The position numbers were made by a program, and so were the translations under genes. The notes beneath the pieces are model-generated. The model was not told the origin of the DNA and ran no database searches. It saw only the letters and a program-made list of their open reading frames with translations. From positions 25,478 through 89,477 of the forward strand of contig RDOA01000011.1 in NCBI GenBank assembly GCA_011364925.1: 64,000 bases of DNA, written 5' to 3'. Below, piece after piece: positions 37,525 through 44,016 of the stretch; positions within the stretch are counted from its first letter, which is position 1; each line of letters opens with the position of its first letter. This DNA is from Promethearchaeota archaeon (lineage in GTDB: Archaea > Asgardarchaeota > Lokiarchaeia > Sigyniarchaeales > SOKP01).

Positions 37525-37908
37525 TTACGCCCACGCAACCTTATTAATAAAAATAGACCATTCGAGTACAATTAAACCTTCATCTCTAGTGTGAGCTATT
37601 AGATAAACTCCTTCTTTCGTAATCGAACCAACAATATTTCCCTTACCACCAACTATATTCTTAGCAGCTAATTGTATTTCATCGTTTTTCAATATAGCAT
37701 ATCTAGAATTTTGAAACATCAAAGCAGATTCTTTTTCCTTCCATGCTTTTAGAATTGCTTTAGCTTCTTCGTTTGAGAACTCAAAATCTTCGGATTTAAA
37801 GAGTATGTTACCTTCAGAATCTAATGCAAATATTTCTTCCATCCCTTCAAATTCATGTAATTCATTAACTAAATAATCAAAACGTCGTTGTTCCATGGCT
37901 TGTATCAT
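37525..37908 (-). CDS. profilin-like protein
   Basis: 127 aa; IFALDSEGNILF and LMFQNSRYAIL...KNIVGGKGNIV resemble the Asgard profilin pattern (recalled, not searched). Confidence 0.6.
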   Translation of the reverse strand: MIQAMEQRRFDYLVNELHEFEGMEEIFALDSEGNILFKSEDFEFSNEEAKAILKAWKEKESALMFQNSRYAILKNDEIQLAAKNIVGGKGNIVGSITKEGVYLIAHTRDEGLIVLEWSIFINKVAWA

Positions 37909-38065: not shown

Positions 38066-38857
38066 ATGTTCATGGTGAAAAGCTTAGTTCTCTCTGATAA
38101 AATCTACAATGGCTTTATAAAAAGAAATAAAGATGATATTTCGGTTAGATATCTCAAATACTTAAACGAAATGACCCAGAGTTTTTCTAATACAAAGATC
38201 AAAATAAAAAAATTACGCCAATTTGATAATCGTTTTGAGATTCTAATCTCTGGTCCAGAAGAAATCTTCATCTTTAATATGCTCAAGAAAAAAGTAGGAA
38301 CTATTATTGATTTTGATGAAATTGAGATTGGAAAAGTATATAAAGGAGTTATGGGAGATGTAGGGAAGGTAGGGTTCGGAATCTTCGTAGATTGTGGTAT
38401 TCTAAATCCAAAAGTCGATGTATTACTCAATCTTTACGATTTACGCACCCAGTTATGTAAAGCCAGACCTATGTCAATAACGGAAGTAATAAATGCATAC
38501 GATTTTATCGATCAATTTCCTGTATTTGTTAAAGTTACCTCAATTAATAAAGAAAAGAAGCAAATTCAAGGTAAATTAGATCAACAAACCTTAGGTTTAT
38601 ATGAAAAATTAATTGATGAGAATCTTGAAGCAGTTTTTATGAGTGGAGATACAAAAGGTCAATTGAAAAAAGCTATTGTAAAATCGGGACATTCTAGGGA
38701 TGTAGTTTCAATAGATCGATATGGTTTTCTCGAAAACATCGTAATACTACAGGAGAATACGACAGCTCCTGGAATTATTGCAGAAATTGGGAAATACCTT
38801 AAGAACTGCAATTTAAGCGCTATACGCCCCAAAAGAATTAAAATGCTATTTTTATAA
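38066..38857 (+). CDS. DUF2110-family S1-like domain protein
   Basis: GKVGFGIFVDCG, GHSRDV...LE, APGII motifs. Confidence 0.75.
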   Translation: MFMVKSLVLSDKIYNGFIKRNKDDISVRYLKYLNEMTQSFSNTKIKIKKLRQFDNRFEILISGPEEIFIFNMLKKKVGTIIDFDEIEIGKVYKGVMGDVGKVGFGIFVDCGILNPKVDVLLNLYDLRTQLCKARPMSITEVINAYDFIDQFPVFVKVTSINKEKKQIQGKLDQQTLGLYEKLIDENLEAVFMSGDTKGQLKKAIVKSGHSRDVVSIDRYGFLENIVILQENTTAPGIIAEIGKYLKNCNLSAIRPKRIKMLFL

Positions 38858-38867
38858 AGATAGAGTA

Positions 38868-38998
38868 TGGTGGGCCCAGGGAGGTTTGAACTCCCGACCT
38901 TCTCGGTGTATTCTCGGATATGAATAAATCATAACATATTAGCGAGACGTATATTATTCAATCCTAAAATTGAATCATAACCACTAGACCATGGGCCC
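38868..38998 (-). tRNA. tRNA-Val(UAC) with two introns (23/24: 38975-38951; 33/34: 38940-38911), CCA encoded
   Basis: Spliced 76-nt cloverleaf GGGCCCA...TCTCG-CTTACAC-CGAGA...TGGGCCC-ACCA; BHB central helices GTTA/TAAT and CTCG/CGAG. Confidence 0.88.
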
Positions 38999-39134
38999 TT
39001 TTTTTGGGCTATTTAAAATAATTATTTTACATTTAATTAATTTTTTAATTAGTACAATTGCTTTAAGACTTTTTCAGTATAAAAATTACAAAATTCATTC
39101 TCGATTTTAAAGTATTATCTTATTAAATAAAAAG

Positions 39135-39236
39135 CGCAATCGGAGGGATTTGAACCCTCGCATCCGTTGGACACCGGATTAGCAATCCGGCGCTTTTGGC
39201 ACGCTCAAGCGTTCTACCAAGCTAAGCGACGATTGC
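39135..39236 (-). tRNA. tRNA-Ser(GCU) with 19-nt D-arm intron (22/23: 39213-39195)
   Basis: GCAATCG/CGATTGC acceptor, CCGGA-TTGCTAA-TCCGG, long variable arm, G73; central helix TGGT/GCCA. Confidence 0.92.
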
Positions 39237-39508
39237 TTGTTCTTGAATTGATCTTCAAGTGCTATATTCTGTATATAAAAATTTAAAATTTTAATACTTT
39301 TTCATTGAAGTGAACAATCCAAATTAAAGAAAAAAGAATCGAAAAATTACTATCTTTCTCTGTATGTAACTTCGAATCTGGGCTGATATTTTTTGTTTTA
39401 ATAAATAATAGTTTTGAGGTTAAAATCAAAATAATACCAGAAAACTCTATAGGGTACGTATATTAACCTATTTATAATCAAGTGTCCATAAATAACCTGG
39501 ATTAAATG

Positions 39509-39991
39509 CTATTCTTGGATAATTTCAAAAACCATTTTCTCAATTAAAGGTTTCTTTGTGTAGCGCTTATCGTAATACCAACCCACTAAATGACCCTCTA
39601 AATCTTTTTCAGGTATATTCGGAATTATAATGATCATTACTCCATTTGAAAGATATTTCAATATTCTTTTATCAATTTGGTGCAATTTATCGTTCCCTGA
39701 TGGATGAGTGTGTGCTTGCCATACGATATCAACTCCAAGTTCTTGTTTAAACTTCCGCATATTATAGATCTTCGACTTCTTATATCGCATCCAACTCCTT
39801 GGTTTTACATGAGATTTAGATTTTCTTAAATCTGGATTGATGATAAACTTATTAACAATTCCGAAGTTTTCTTTACGATCTGCAAAAATCCAGTAGTGTT
39901 CTATATTTGGATAAACCTCTGCAGCTTTCTGAGTTATTTCTTTAAATATTCGATCTGGTATTAAATACCTAAAATTTTTTGCCCCATTCAT
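39509..39991 (-). CDS. JAB/MPN (JAMM)-domain protein
   Basis: YPNIEHYW (Glu) and AHTHP-x6-HQID metal motif. Confidence 0.75.
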   Translation of the reverse strand: MNGAKNFRYLIPDRIFKEITQKAAEVYPNIEHYWIFADRKENFGIVNKFIINPDLRKSKSHVKPRSWMRYKKSKIYNMRKFKQELGVDIVWQAHTHPSGNDKLHQIDKRILKYLSNGVMIIIIPNIPEKDLEGHLVGWYYDKRYTKKPLIEKMVFEIIQE

Positions 39992-40161
39992 TTTTACATT
40001 AGCTCAATTACGAGTCAATGAAACATAAAATTTATATTTTTCTTATATATATCGTCCTAAGGTACGAAATATAAGAGAAAAATAAAAAAAAATTTATTTT
40101 ATTAAAAATAATCTACTTTAATACTTAGATCGCATTTTAAAAAAATAATAAACATTAATAG

Positions 40162-40262
40162 GCACCTGTAGCCTAGTGGTAAGACGCTGGCCTTGAGTGC
40201 GTATTATTATCAAGTAAGCCAGTGCGCGTAAGCGCTCGGGGGTTCAAATCCCTCCAGGTGCG
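40162..40262 (+). tRNA. tRNA-Ser(UGA) with canonical 37/38 intron (40198-40216)
   Basis: GCACCTG/CAGGTGC, CTGGC-CTTGAG[intron]A-GCCAG, long variable arm; central helix CTTG/CAAG. Confidence 0.92.
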
Positions 40263-40287
40263 TTTTAAAATGTGAATCATGTAGAAT

Positions 40288-40391
40288 GGGCTATTAGCGC
40301 AGTCAGGTAGCGCATCCGGCTCTTAACCGGCAGGTCGGGGGTTCGATACACTTAATCAGAGTCGTTGAGTGCGGAATTCCCTCATAGCCCG
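40288..40391 (+). tRNA. tRNA-Lys(CUU) with 30-nt T-loop intron (59/60: 40348-40377)
   Basis: GGGCTAT/ATAGCCC, loop CTCTTAA; central helix TTCG/CGGA; splicing restores the TTCGATT loop. Confidence 0.92.
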
Positions 40392-40431
40392 TTAAATTCT
40401 TCTTTTTCCAGTCTTTCAGTTTAATAAAAAG

Positions 40432-41367
40432 TTATTTTAAATACTGAAAAATAACTTCAAAATCTGAAAAATCGAATGGTTTTAAGATATATCCATCAGC
40501 ATGGCTATCCTTTAAATTTTTTTCTACTTCCGAGCCAGGGATCGCTGTTAACAAATAAACTGCAATTTTATGAAGGTCTTTGTTTGCTTTAATCTGTTTA
40601 CAGATTTCATAACCACTATAATCAGGTAGTATAATATCTAACAGAATAAGTTTTGGTGGATTATTTGCTACTTCTTCTAAACCTTTAGAACCGCTTATTA
40701 CTCCTTTGCAGGTATACCCTTTGCTTTCGAAATAACTCGTGAGTAAACGAATAGTCGCTAAATCGTCTTCGATGAGTAATATATCGTATTGAGTAGTCTC
40801 CGTCTTTATATTATCAAGAATATTTATTATTTTTTTTTCTAACAGCAAGGACTGGTTAAAAATATTCTGGATGGTGGTAAAAACTTCCTCTTCTATCTCA
40901 TCTTTATAATTTTCAATTAGAAGTTGGGAAAACCCTTTAATTGATGTCAATGGTTCCTTCAAAGCATGGGATATGCTAGTTAGAGTCTGATCGTCTAGTT
41001 TTTGCATATCATCGTTAATATTCCTAGATTTCTGTTTTATAAAGTAATTCACACTTTCTCTTATGAGTTTTGAGATCGTATTGTAATCATCTTTATGGGC
41101 ATTAATAAATTCACTCCATTCTTCTTTCGTATCGTCTGAAACATATAAGGAAATCCGTTCCTTCTCTCTATCGTAAATCTTTTCTCCGCGTAACCAATTT
41201 AAAAAACCAGTTGTGACATTCTCTCTCCATATGGCGAATTTGCCAGTTTCTTCACGGTATTGCTCCATGAGTTTTTTTGCCATCTCACTCTCCAAATCTA
41301 GATTTTCAATTTCTTCTTCTGAGAGTTTTGGTAATGAATTGTTGTCTTTTTCGTTTGAATTAGTGAT
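40432..41367 (-). CDS. RHH-HisKA(DHp)-receiver fusion protein, paralog 1 (start ATC 41367 or GTG 41376)
   Basis: KERISLYVSDDTKEEW...TISKLIRESV (RHH-like), SHALKEPLTSIKG (H-box), REC domain with IEDD, LLDIILPD, LLTA, ILKPF; no HATPase domain. Confidence 0.85.
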   Translation of the reverse strand: MTNSNEKDNNSLPKLSEEEIENLDLESEMAKKLMEQYREETGKFAIWRENVTTGFLNWLRGEKIYDREKERISLYVSDDTKEEWSEFINAHKDDYNTISKLIRESVNYFIKQKSRNINDDMQKLDDQTLTSISHALKEPLTSIKGFSQLLIENYKDEIEEEVFTTIQNIFNQSLLLEKKIINILDNIKTETTQYDILLIEDDLATIRLLTSYFESKGYTCKGVISGSKGLEEVANNPPKLILLDIILPDYSGYEICKQIKANKDLHKIAVYLLTAIPGSEVEKNLKDSHADGYILKPFDFSDFEVIFQYLK

Positions 41368-41542
41368 CTTTAACACCTTTCGTTATTTGTACTACTGCTT
41401 TAATTCAAATTGTGATTGATATCTTCGAAATTTCATGTATAAATAATAAATGTCAATATAAATAATTTTACACAAAAAATAAATCTATTTATTATAAATT
41501 TTCAAAACCAAAAAATTTTGAACGCAATTTTAGTTTTTGTTA

Positions 41543-42514
41543 CTATTTTGCTTTACCATTTAAAATTTTAAAAATTATGTCAAAATCAGAAAAATTAAAA
41601 GGTTTCAGTATAAAGCCGTCTGCCTGTGAATTCTTTAAATGTTTTTTTACTTCTGATGCAGATATCGCTGTAAGGAAGAATACTGGAATTTTCTTAAAAG
41701 TATTATCTGTTTTTATAGTCTGACAAATATCGTAACCACTTATATCTGGTAATATTATATCTAATAATATAACTTTCGGAATAGTTCGACGTAATTCTTC
41801 TAAGCCTTTTGATCCGCTAACTACTCCCTTACAAATAAATTCTTTACTTTCAAAATAACTAGTAATAAGTCGAATCGTTGCTAAATCGTCTTCAATCAAC
41901 AAGATGTCATATGGTGTAGTGTAAGGCTTAATATTATCTAAAAAATTCTTTATAATGCTCTCCAGTAAATTACTCTGATCAAAAATATTCTTAATGGTCT
42001 CTTCTACATGATTGCTTAACTTACCACGATATTCTTCGCTTTCAAGTAAGAGTTGAGAATATCCTTTAATTGATGTTAAAGGTTCCTTTAAAGCGTGAGA
42101 GATATTAGAGATAGTCGTTGGGTTTAACTTTGATAACTCGCTTGAAACTCTGCCCGAATCTTCTATAAATGTGGTTACGCTTTGCCTTATTAATTCAGAA
42201 AATGTTGGGAACTCTTCCTTGTTCACATTTATAAAATTTTGCCAATCGTTTTTTACATCATCAGCAACATATAATGATATTCTTTCCTTGTCTCTCGTAT
42301 ACACTTTTTCTCCTTTTAACCACCTGATAAAACTTTCCGTTACCATCCCTCTCCAAATCGGGTATTTAGTAGTTTCTGCCTTGTATTCTTCCATTAAATG
42401 TTTAGCCTTCTCGCTATCAAGGTCAAGATTTTCGATCTCCTCTTCGCTTAATATGGGTCTTTCCTCTTTTTTCCCCTTTTGGGAATCCTGGTTACTTTCT
42501 TCGGACCTAGTCAT
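41543..42514 (-). CDS. RHH-HisKA(DHp)-receiver fusion protein, paralog 2
   Basis: Same architecture: KERISLYVADDVKNDW...TFSELIRQSV, SHALKEPLTSIKG, IEDD/LLDIILPD/FLTA/LKPF. Confidence 0.85.
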   Translation of the reverse strand: MTRSEESNQDSQKGKKEERPILSEEEIENLDLDSEKAKHLMEEYKAETTKYPIWRGMVTESFIRWLKGEKVYTRDKERISLYVADDVKNDWQNFINVNKEEFPTFSELIRQSVTTFIEDSGRVSSELSKLNPTTISNISHALKEPLTSIKGYSQLLLESEEYRGKLSNHVEETIKNIFDQSNLLESIIKNFLDNIKPYTTPYDILLIEDDLATIRLITSYFESKEFICKGVVSGSKGLEELRRTIPKVILLDIILPDISGYDICQTIKTDNTFKKIPVFFLTAISASEVKKHLKNSQADGFILKPFNFSDFDIIFKILNGKAK

Positions 42515-42991
42515 CTTTTCATCTGATTTAACTCATACTTGTAAGATTTACCTTCAACCTTAACAAAGGAATTACAACGATTTTTAGTGCAAAAAATTAG
42601 TGAAAAAAGTATTATTTAAGATTATGGAAAAAGAAAATGATGTCTCAATTACTCGTTTCTCGTTTCGAGATAAAGCCGAATAGAGTCATGATCTCTCTTA
42701 AATAAAAAAAGGGATTTTTGATTATGTAATAGAAGTCGAATCAACAATCCTAACCATCTATATTGATCGGGGAAACATGGTTCTCAGAATATATATCTGG
42801 ATAATACAATATCAATTTTTTAAAGAAAATTGAGCAGTTTATATTGAAAAATATATATTTACATGTTACTGATATTTTTAATTCCAAAAAATAAATTAGT
42901 TATCTAACAATTCATATTCATTTTTGTCGTGTGAAAAAAAATACAATAATACTTTGTACAAATGGTAAAAAAAATGAAAATGATCGTAATA

Positions 42992-43088
42992 TTTAAATAG
43001 GTGTGTGTAATTAATTTTATTATGTCGAGTTTGTGTGCGCAAAATTTTTAATTTTTGATTTCAAATTTTTCAAATTACAAATGCGACA
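42992..43088 (+). promoter_or_regulatory. putative tfb promoter (TATA TTTAAATA) and 5'-leader stem-loop
   Basis: TATA-like box at 42992-42999; 43023-43035 pairs with 43076-43088 (12 of 13 positions, including 2 G-U). Confidence 0.4.
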
Positions 43089-43128
43089 AAAATTTTTTTG
43101 ATAATAATAAGGGAAGTGGTATAATAAC

Positions 43129-44016
43129 ATGGTCGTTGAAATAGATATTACATCAAATTTATGTCCCGAATGTGGAGGACCTACTGTTAGTATTCAGGAA
43201 AGGGGAGAAACAGTCTGTCAGCAATGTGGATTAGTAGTTGGTGAGAGAGGTCTAGATGTCACTCACAGTGGAATACGAGCATATTCAAAACACGAAAAAG
43301 ATAGAAAAGAACGAACAGGGTCTCCAATGTCTATCTTAATGCCCGATATTGGTCTAAGCACTGTGATCGACAGAACAAAAATCAAGAATCCTGACTTAAG
43401 ACGCGCTGCGAAATGGAATACTCATTTATCCTGGGAAAAAAGGAATATGTTAATGGCTATTACCGAATTAAAAAGAATAGGTGGAAATTTAAATTTTCCT
43501 GAAAGAGTGAAAAAATCTGCGGTGCGATTATACAAAGAAGTTTTTAAAAGACAGCTTTTAAGGGGTAGGTCTATTAATGGAATGGTGGCTGCTTGTGCGT
43601 ATTACGCATGCAAGGATGAAAAAGTTCCTATAACACTCCAAGAAATTTTAGAAGAAGCATCTATTAACGACAATATCGTAAAGAAATGTTACAAAATCTT
43701 AGTTCGTGAACTTAATTTAAAAATCTCGCATATCGATCCTGTTACACTAATTCCACGTTATTGTGCTGATTTAAATTTAGGAATCGAAGTAGAAAAAGAA
43801 GCTATGAGAGTACTTCACAATTTTATTGTAAGGACTTCTATATCTGGAAAGGATCCTAAAGGATTATGTGCTGGTGCAATATATCTCGTGTCTAAATTAA
43901 GAAATGTAAAAGTATCACAGAAGGACATTTCTCATATAATAGGCGTAACAGAAGTCACGCTACGCTCTAGATATAAAGAGCTACTTAAGAACATCAGTTT
44001 AAATTTTAACGCCTAA
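43129..44016 (+). CDS. tfb: transcription initiation factor IIB (TFB paralog)
   Basis: CPEC...CQQCG Zn ribbon, two cyclin repeats (RGRS, GKDPKG), GVTEVTLRSRYKEL. Confidence 0.95.
   Translation: MVVEIDITSNLCPECGGPTVSIQERGETVCQQCGLVVGERGLDVTHSGIRAYSKHEKDRKERTGSPMSILMPDIGLSTVIDRTKIKNPDLRRAAKWNTHLSWEKRNMLMAITELKRIGGNLNFPERVKKSAVRLYKEVFKRQLLRGRSINGMVAACAYYACKDEKVPITLQEILEEASINDNIVKKCYKILVRELNLKISHIDPVTLIPRYCADLNLGIEVEKEAMRVLHNFIVRTSISGKDPKGLCAGAIYLVSKLRNVKVSQKDISHIIGVTEVTLRSRYKELLKNISLNFNA

Follow-up and report, generated by a model that had tools for sequence, protein, structure and literature searches.

The tandem genes and their domain organization

The DNA considered here, called the window throughout, is a stretch of 64,000 nucleotides from a Promethearchaeota archaeon (GenBank assembly GCA_011364925.1, contig RDOA01000011.1, positions 25,478 to 89,477), a member of the Asgard archaea, which are the closest prokaryotic relatives of eukaryotes. 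It carries two neighbouring genes, here called A and B, whose products share one order of parts: an N-terminal module (N-module), a segment supported as a ribbon-helix-helix (RHH) domain, a dimerization and histidine phosphotransfer (DHp) hairpin and a receiver. The way in which archaeal two-component systems act on transcription is largely unexplained, since response regulators there almost never carry recognizable DNA-binding outputs, and the family to which A and B belong would offer a concrete and testable route in Asgard archaea, from kinase via receiver to control by an RHH domain. The features of both genes, with positions in the window, are the following (pLDDT, predicted local distance difference test score).

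40432-41376, minus strand: gene A, open reading frame (ORF) of 314 amino acids with a GTG start; N-module, RHH, DHp, receiver
41173-41331, minus strand: N-module of A, residues 16-68, by alignment to B
41008-41166, minus strand: RHH of A, residues 71-123, by alignment to B and the family profile
40807-40998, minus strand: DHp hairpin of A with H137, residues 127-190, by Pfam HisKA (27.3 bits) and alignment to B
40438-40785, minus strand: receiver of A, residues 198-313, by Pfam and alignment to B
41543-42514 (stop codon included), minus strand: gene B, ORF of 323 amino acids; N-module, RHH, DHp, receiver
42299-42457, minus strand: N-module of B, residues 20-72; predicted helix, helix, beta-hairpin, helix at pLDDT 95-97; W54 and W65 invariant
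42134-42292, minus strand: RHH of B, residues 75-127; strand RISLYV, helix A 85-97, helix B 105-127
41930-42127, minus strand: DHp hairpin of B, residues 130-195, by Pfam HisKA; helices 132-158 and 168-192
42095-42097, minus strand: CAC codon of H140 of B, within the H-box SHALKEPLTSIKG
41561-41908, minus strand: receiver of B, residues 203-318, by Pfam, conservation counts and receiver fold matches
41759-41761, minus strand: codon of the phospho-acceptor D252 of B

A and B are paralogs with 62% identity across 300 residues (E 3e-133). HisKA (PF00512) is matched with 45.0 bits in B and 27.3 bits in A, and Response_reg (PF00072) with 69.2 bits in B and 68.0 bits in A, against curated Pfam gathering cut-offs of 26.9 and 30.2 bits, respectively. 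Both proteins possess the helical hairpin and the H-box histidine of HisKA as well as a complete receiver, with D209, D210, D252, T282, K304 and the aromatic switch residue F301 in B and D204, D205, D247, T277, K299 and the aromatic switch residue Y296 in A. HATPase_c was matched by Pfam in neither protein, even at E 10, and the interval between hairpin and receiver in B leaves no room for such a domain. The first ~130 residues of A and B are covered by no Pfam family; a match to DUF7386 (E 0.099) and other weak Pfam matches were taken as noise. In NCBIfam the best matches are hybrid kinases and response regulators, all partial, running through the HisKA and receiver parts only and scoring far under every equivalog cut-off (78 bits versus 725).

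The H-box SHALKEPLTSIKG reads S-H-A-L-K-E-P-L-T-S-I-K-G in both A and B, with Ala directly after the histidine (H+1), Glu at H+4 and Pro at H+5. In HisKA kinases an acidic H+1 residue is tied to kinase chemistry and Thr or Asn at H+4 to phosphatase chemistry, and the canonical catalytic H-box with these residues is not what A and B have, as theirs runs H-A-L-K-E-P. An initial annotation of the window, made by a model from the letters and a list of ORFs, had described tandem paralogs with an N-module, an RHH segment, a DHp histidine and an intact receiver, had pointed to Ala at H+1 and Glu at H+4, and had found no HATPase_c domain in either protein. ORFs, identity, Pfam and profile alignment (hhalign) bear out this description, and the motifs that it quoted (KERISLYV, the H-box, LLDIILPD, T and KPF) are present, next to EDD.

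Evidence for a ribbon-helix-helix domain

The RHH segment, which had been recognized by its pattern only, was substantiated by profile and fold comparisons. Family residues 72-128, represented by 44 cluster representatives, were aligned by hhalign with five proteins encoded in the same genome and scoring as RHH_1 in Pfam, resulting in a probability of 95% (E 3.5e-8) over 46 columns that span the strand and both helices. Controls against the same target, consisting of reversed family columns, N-module columns and DHp columns, each stayed under 1%. Relatives of A and B further give sub-threshold matches to RHH_1 and RHH_5.

In an AlphaFold2 model of B residues 1-135, with a mean pLDDT of 85.6 for this N-terminal part and of 94-97 over residues 81-110, an extended stretch (78-84) is followed by helices 85-97 and 105-127. 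When residues 75-135 of the model were compared with 48,161 PDB representatives by VIA-align, RHH proteins were the commonest class among the best matches and occupied most of the top ranks. These included ParD-like 5ceg (Z 4.9, root-mean-square deviation (rmsd) 3.1 Å over 59 residues), MazE-mt9 6a6x (Z 4.7, 2.1 Å over 54 residues), ParD2 7b22 (Z 4.6, 2.0 Å over 49 residues), NikR 1q5v (Z 4.0, 1.7 Å over 46 residues) and the RHH domain of PutA on operator DNA, 2rbf (Z 3.7, 1.2 Å over 44 residues), as well as PrpA 7ycv, KacA on DNA 5zgn and TacA1 7zg6. We give these fold matches weight because they cover the whole domain at low rmsd and stand together with the hhalign result, so that the segment after the N-module in A and B is supported as a ribbon-helix-helix by both profile and fold. 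Other searches were less telling: Foldseek with the N-terminal model of B gave nothing in the PDB with E below 2, the full-length model matched receiver structures only, and a hidden Markov model profile of the N-terminal region found among PDB sequences no match to an RHH or for the N-module, giving weak H-box matches only.

The full-length AlphaFold2 model of B (mean pLDDT 83) has four parts. A compact N-module, made of three helices (24-28, 35-48 and 60-66) with a hairpin (53-58) before the last, precedes the RHH part (75-127), which is separated by a four-residue break from DHp helix 1 (132-158, holding H140); after helix 2 (168-192) a linker of ~10 residues leads to the receiver at 204-318. 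Read from this secondary-structure layout, RHH helix B and DHp helix 1 are predicted to be nearly continuous and the receiver to be tethered at the end of the hairpin, near the H-box.

Distribution, conservation and fate of the histidine

With B as query, a word-indexed search brought up 1,501 proteins with E values of 0.001 or lower. Of these, the 120 best are 72-98% identical and all have both HisKA and Response_reg; those that carry a name are annotated as response regulators from Lokiarchaeota, Promethearchaeota or Hermodarchaeota archaea. An exhaustive HMMER search with residues 1-132 of B against 1.84 billion cluster representatives yielded only 91 clusters. Of 301 genomes taken from across the phylum, those of the window's own family have the N-terminal region in 64 of 68 cases; in a sister family one of seven gave a weak match, and the remaining 225 gave none. 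Three full members are encoded in the window's genome, namely A, B and a 333-residue copy on contig C2, which make up three of the 11 receiver-domain matches there.

For conservation counts, 188 near-full-length members were clustered at 70% identity, which gave 44 clusters. The receiver aspartate (D252 in B) is kept in 187 of the 188 members and in 43 of the 44 clusters, and K304 (B numbering) in 183 members. Within the N-terminal half, conservation is highest in the RHH signature, whose outward-facing strand residues R78, S80 and Y82 are present in 184, 177 and 185 members, respectively. A and B share these DNA-facing residues with nearly all paralogs, which makes it probable that similar DNA sites are recognized throughout and that the paralogs are distinguished by the signals they receive; heterodimers of A and B are plausible candidates for a test.

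The H-box histidine has a different fate, being replaced (by Y, F, L, R, K or others) in 13 of the 44 clusters, over several clades of the tree. Three states can be distinguished. Paralogs adjacent to kinases mostly have a canonical H-D/E box (SHDLKEPLT, SHELKRPLT, VHEVKGKLT), the A and B orthologs linked to the transcription factor B (TFB) gene tfb always have S-H-(A/T/S)-L-K-E-P-L-T, and a third clade, to which the C2 copy of the same genome belongs, is without the histidine, with the C2 copy falling below HisKA scoring. H140, like the entire H-box SHALKEPLT(S/T)IKG, does not vary among the A/B orthologs examined, whatever their genus. The initial annotation had allowed that a histidine not conserved among homologs would refute its proposal; such loss is indeed seen in the family at large, but not in the lineage of A and B. 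From these alignments the family as a whole does not appear to require the DHp histidine, which in the A/B lineage may add phosphatase or back-transfer activity. The three states, with the histidine in an H-[D/E] box, in an H-A box or lost, form a natural series for studying the role of a DHp without kinase.

Kinase partners of the family

The initial annotation saw no kinase in the window, and none is there, because contig C16, which holds the window, is without any of the 14 HATPase_c matches of the 3.9-Mb genome. This holds for the window only; other members of the family are paired with kinases. Dispersed paralogs in other genomes, of ~277-304 residues, often lie tail-to-tail with a large kinase. 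Such pairing with kinases that have a true ATPase domain was found for at least nine dispersed or rearranged family genes, the convergent kinase lying at 10-51 bp in L016, L014, L037, L038, L039, L041, L042, L043 and L046, loci from at least four genera, and additional kinases lie within 2-3 kb in L033, L034, L035 and L045. In L014 and L016, both of one genus, the kinase is located between two tandem genes, with tfb not nearby.

In a scan of seven neighbouring kinases, each proved to be a multi-PAS HisKA-HATPase_c protein with the ATPase domain at its C-terminal end. A receiver at the N-terminus occurs in one of them, and C-terminal receivers and HPt domains are absent from all seven. These pairs represent the ordinary arrangement of a kinase and its regulator, and with kinases of this simple build, lacking a C-terminal receiver, no relay step over a second histidine is needed. 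The window's genome holds no ortholog of a kinase-adjacent paralog or of that paralog's kinase, the best kinase identities being 30-44%; these are reached by at least six multi-PAS kinases of the same type (contigs C21, C25, C40 twice, C59 and C91).

Two further loci of this genome touch on receivers related to that of B. On contig C23 (L031:7277-8871), a 242-residue protein with a weak HisKA match and with HATPase_c is followed after 24 bp by a 281-residue protein with a C-terminal receiver, which matches B from the DHp region on (residues 142-320). On contig C101 (L030:584-2218), a 545-residue protein of receiver and leucine-rich repeats (LRR) has the receiver closest to B's genome-wide (phmmer E 9e-41), and judged by this similarity B and the receiver-LRR protein may share a kinase.

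Proposed mechanism and alternative explanations

We consider it probable that A and B are kinase-partnered RHH response-regulator transcription factors, in which the DHp hairpin serves mainly as a dimer scaffold and as a docking surface for the receiver. A response regulator with an RHH output is the best supported explanation because the RHH, the hairpin and the phosphorylatable receiver are constant throughout and members are paired with ordinary kinases. Purifying selection, seen in the 72-98% identity of the 120 best matches, and the conserved synteny also count in its favour. RHH strands and DHp hairpins of two chains would pair into an obligate dimer, with RHH helix B (105-127) passing almost directly over into DHp helix 1 (132-158). 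The receiver aspartate (D252 in B, D247 in A) would be phosphorylated by a separate multi-PAS histidine kinase, the receiver sitting on its linker of ~10 residues at the top of the hairpin, beside the H-box. Phosphorylation would then change the docking of the receiver to the hairpin, and through it the geometry of the RHH heads or the oligomeric state, and in this way DNA binding. We infer these steps from phosphorylation to DNA binding.

Several observations weigh against this explanation. The RHH fold matches have low Z scores (3.7-4.9), of a size that a common helical arrangement can also give; the unrelated helical proteins MatP (3vea) and an axonemal chain (8j07) likewise reach Z 4.7. 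RHH domains dimerize through an antiparallel two-stranded sheet that enters the major groove, and the RHH strand is extended and unpaired in the models, which are monomer predictions only. Neither A nor B lies next to a kinase. The full invariance of the H-box in A/B orthologs, from genera that are ~60-70% identical overall, exceeds what a simple scaffold needs. Finally, an operator common to the whole family was considered and rejected, since the candidate, a CA-rich motif enriched in the region facing tfb, is absent upstream of A and of the dispersed paralogs; no family-wide operator was found, and it is gene order that points to tfb as a possible target.

The initial annotation had left a choice between a phosphorylation-controlled transcription factor and a phosphotransfer hub. 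The first is the reading that our data support, while the second is weakened by the loss of the histidine in part of the family and by the non-hybrid nature of the neighbouring kinases. As a hub, A and B would use the DHp histidine as a working phospho-acceptor, either in the manner of Spo0B and ChpT, accepting phosphate from another receiver and handing it on, or by shuttling phosphate to and from the own receiver aspartate, and DNA binding would report the state of a multi-step relay. The invariance of H140 and its H-box in A/B orthologs is what such a role would predict, as are the canonical H-[D/E] box retained in kinase-adjacent paralogs, the HisKA scores above cut-off in A and B, and the receiver tethered ~10 residues from the end of DHp helix 2, near the histidine; phospho-acceptor or phosphatase roles have moreover been raised for HisKA-only proteins (PMC5847659). 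Yet the clusters that lost the histidine, among them the genome's third paralog, kept the receiver aspartate, and Ala at H+1 and Glu at H+4 replace the acidic and Thr/Asn residues. Six of the seven neighbouring kinases lack a receiver that could act as first aspartate donor, none having a C-terminal one, and a domain resembling the catalytic and ATP-binding (CA) domain, as present in Spo0B or ChpT, is missing. We therefore regard a hub as possible but unlikely, noting that it could coexist with the function of A and B as RHH transcription factors.

Quite improbable in our view is a role as kinase modulator or phosphate sink, in which the DHp would pair or compete with that of true kinases, or act as phosphatase on other receivers, the receiver would drain phosphate and the RHH-like segment would serve protein contacts instead of DNA binding. 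The tail-to-tail position of paralogs and kinases, the DHp without ATPase domain and the occurrence of the N-module in signalling proteins that do not bind DNA would fit such a role. It is at odds, however, with the RHH signature, whose outward basic and polar strand residues are the best conserved of the N-terminal half, and with the conserved synteny with a basal transcription factor gene, and Glu at H+4 speaks against a canonical phosphatase motif. That A and B would be decayed hybrid histidine kinases, functionless since the loss of their ATPase domain, is scarcely credible and, as judged from conservation, excluded: hybrid kinases are the best NCBIfam matches, through HisKA and receiver only, but the frames are intact, identity is 72-98% among the best 120 of 1,501 matches, one family has the N-terminal region in 64 of its 68 sampled genomes, tandem order and synteny are conserved and the functional residues are invariant.

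Comparison with known systems

The initial annotation presented A and B as a candidate new family, which does not hold. The census of Galperin et al. (2018) lists RibbonHH-HisKA-REC proteins in Lokiarchaeum GC14_75, without experiments; in its Table S3, Lokiarch_05110 (KKK46010) and Lokiarch_07240 (KKK45742) are given as 'RibbonHH-HisKA-REC' and Lokiarch_06650 (KKK45814) as '???-HisKA-REC' (PMC5847659). A and B have the N-terminal RHH of Arc/CopG type and the HisKA directly before REC without HATPase_c that characterize these proteins, and are likened to them by architecture, in domain order and absence of HATPase_c, and by their Lokiarchaeia lineage. In a paper of 2023, KKK46010 appears with HisKA and REC as its only domains, and an entry is also given for KKK46009, a multi-PAS kinase of 132 kDa with the accession number just before it (PMC10343646). 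The architecture is thus not new, and A and B are strongly conserved, uncharacterized representatives of it. The census, which treats the proteins in one sentence and one table and notes that few archaeal response regulators have DNA-binding domains, does not mention the N-module, the tandem pair, the TFB synteny, the kinase-adjacent paralogs or the variable histidine (PMC5847659). Added here are the distribution over one family, the TFB synteny, the kinase-paired paralogs, the graded loss of the histidine and the fusions of the N-module; the value lies in this context and in the experiments that it opens, not in the discovery of the family. What makes the proteins of interest, namely the TFB linkage, the kinase pairing, the graded histidine loss and the GTPase-linked N-module, is all directly testable.

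Other systems share parts of the design. Spo0B of Bacillus subtilis and ChpT of Caulobacter likewise have a histidine-bearing hairpin and form a four-helix-bundle dimer without autokinase activity, a property that for A and B is predicted only. Both keep a degenerate CA-like alpha/beta domain and are without a fused receiver or DNA-binding domain, and A and B are the opposite on each of these points, with the receiver following the hairpin where the CA-like domain would be; many paralogs of A and B, moreover, do without the histidine. REC-(PAS/GAF)n-HisKA proteins of the AF_1472 type and other archaeal 'HisKA, no HATPase' proteins, for which roles in dimerization, as phosphatase or as phospho-acceptor have been proposed, resemble A and B in having a HisKA histidine without ATPase domain, sometimes with a receiver, and in being uncharacterized (PMC5847659). 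In the AF_1472 type, however, the receiver is N-terminal, PAS/GAF sensors are present and a DNA-binding domain is absent, whereas A and B are ordered as RHH, HisKA and REC without PAS/GAF.

In NikR and PutA, to which A and B are likened by predicted layout, an N-terminal RHH binds DNA under the control of a C-terminal domain that sets the oligomeric geometry. The control domains there are metal-binding (an ACT-like tetramer) or enzymes, while A and B would have a two-component phospho-switch instead. Hybrid kinases such as HrmK, ArcB and BarA (HisKA-HATPase_c-REC) also have HisKA and then a receiver in one chain and are matched in two stretches; compared to these, A and B lack HATPase_c and sensor domains and have the N-terminal RHH.

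Gene order and the tfb-B intergenic region

The genes and elements around A and B are the following.

43129-44016, plus strand, divergent from B: TFB paralog (tfb), by Pfam TFIIB and Zn_Ribbon_TF; 77-91% identity across genera
42515-43128: tfb-B intergenic region of 614 bp, shared with the divergent tfb
42991-42999: TATTTAAAT element in this intergenic region, flanked by TTACACACAC (43001-43010), with GCGCACACAAAC closer to tfb
39509-39991, minus strand: JAMM/MPN-like gene of 160 amino acids with motif HTHPSGNDKLHQID; no Pfam match; 73-83% identity in 10 of 14 loci

Gene order was compared over 14 loci from eight genera. In the block formed by the divergent tfb, B, A and the JAMM-like gene, tfb is kept in 11 of the 14 loci and the JAMM-like gene in 10, and genes for DUF2110, a profilin-like protein and proteasome alpha come next in nine. 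A link with phosphate was rejected, as the PhoU_div and PHO4 genes beyond tfb are found there in none of the 14 loci. The window's genome has eight TFB genes (16 cyclin-repeat matches), the others lying on contigs C34, C36, C44, C70, C76, C91 and C95. That the pair keeps its place next to an alternative TFB gene suggests that a basal transcription factor is controlled in response to signals, and by gene order the likeliest target of A and B would be the divergent tfb or the shared 614-bp control region.

The tfb-B intergenic regions have a G+C content of 18-28%. TATTTAAAT is invariant in all 12 syntenic ones, and ACACACAA and TTGTGTGT elements recur on their tfb side, the 8-mer ACACACAA occurring 1.57 times per kb in these regions versus 0.016 per kb genome-wide. 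The window's own copy has only near-matches to this 8-mer, TTACACACACC and GCGCACACAAAC. The CA-rich motif, ACACA(A/C)AA, is absent upstream of A orthologs and of dispersed paralogs. It has the appearance of a conserved cis-element of the tfb-B region, and may equally be a promoter or leader element of tfb. A guess at a regulon was dropped, seven genomic clusters of the motif being mostly inside ORFs or near unrelated genes, such as those for an LRR protein and a flavin adenine dinucleotide (FAD) oxidoreductase.

A more far-reaching picture of the block is speculative and, taken as a whole, rather improbable. Here tfb, B and A would form a phosphorylation-driven switch for one of the eight alternative TFBs, with homo- or heterodimers of A and B, all recognizing one DNA site, coupling the signals of multi-PAS kinases to TFB choice, the DHp histidine would swap phosphate with the fused receiver as an in-chain His-Asp buffer, and the N-module would link two-component signalling to a eukaryote-like network of GTPases and cytoskeleton. 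To our knowledge, an in-chain His-Asp buffer has not been described for any response regulator.

Further along the block, the JAMM-like motif HTHPSGNDKLHQID has His in place of the usual Ser. The profilin-like gene (37525-37908, minus strand, 127 amino acids), which heads the proteasome-alpha block and is present in nine of the 14 loci, matches Pfam Profilin with E 2.2e-4, under the cut-off. Two tRNA-like sequences lie at ~40170-40400 on the plus strand, between gene A and the JAMM-like gene, of which one, by eye, looks like a tRNA interrupted in the T-arm, possibly with a CTT anticodon. Within 38800-40450 ARAGORN did not call any tRNA; the sequences may be intron-bearing tRNA genes.

The N-terminal module and its other contexts

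The N-module (residues ~15-80 of B) has the consensus L-S-E-E-E-I-x-x-L-D-L ... Y-x-x-E-T-x-K-x-A-I-W-R-G-x-x-T-x-x-F-x-x-W-L-K-G-E-K, and no match to it was found in Pfam families, PDB sequences or, for residues 15-76, ESM Atlas clusters. It also occurs in proteins without an RHH, standing after an Arf-like GTPase and before a receiver in P0162, after Ras-like GTPases in P0168 and P0169, after a Ras fragment and gelsolin in P0178 and after a RING finger in P0203. The N-module, of ~50-60 residues with two invariant Trp, is a separable, mobile unit in metagenomic proteins of Asgard type.

One odd relative, P0121 (241 residues, truncated, from a single metagenomic cluster), has the N-module, RHH and H-box running on into a DHp of kinase type and the N-box of an ATPase domain. 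Its composition shifts at the H-box, where the fraction of F, Y, M, I, N and K residues (FYMINK) falls from 0.35-0.42 to 0.20-0.23. Either P0121 is a genuine but rare histidine kinase with an RHH, or it is a chimera that arose in assembly, with the conserved H-box as the point of joining.

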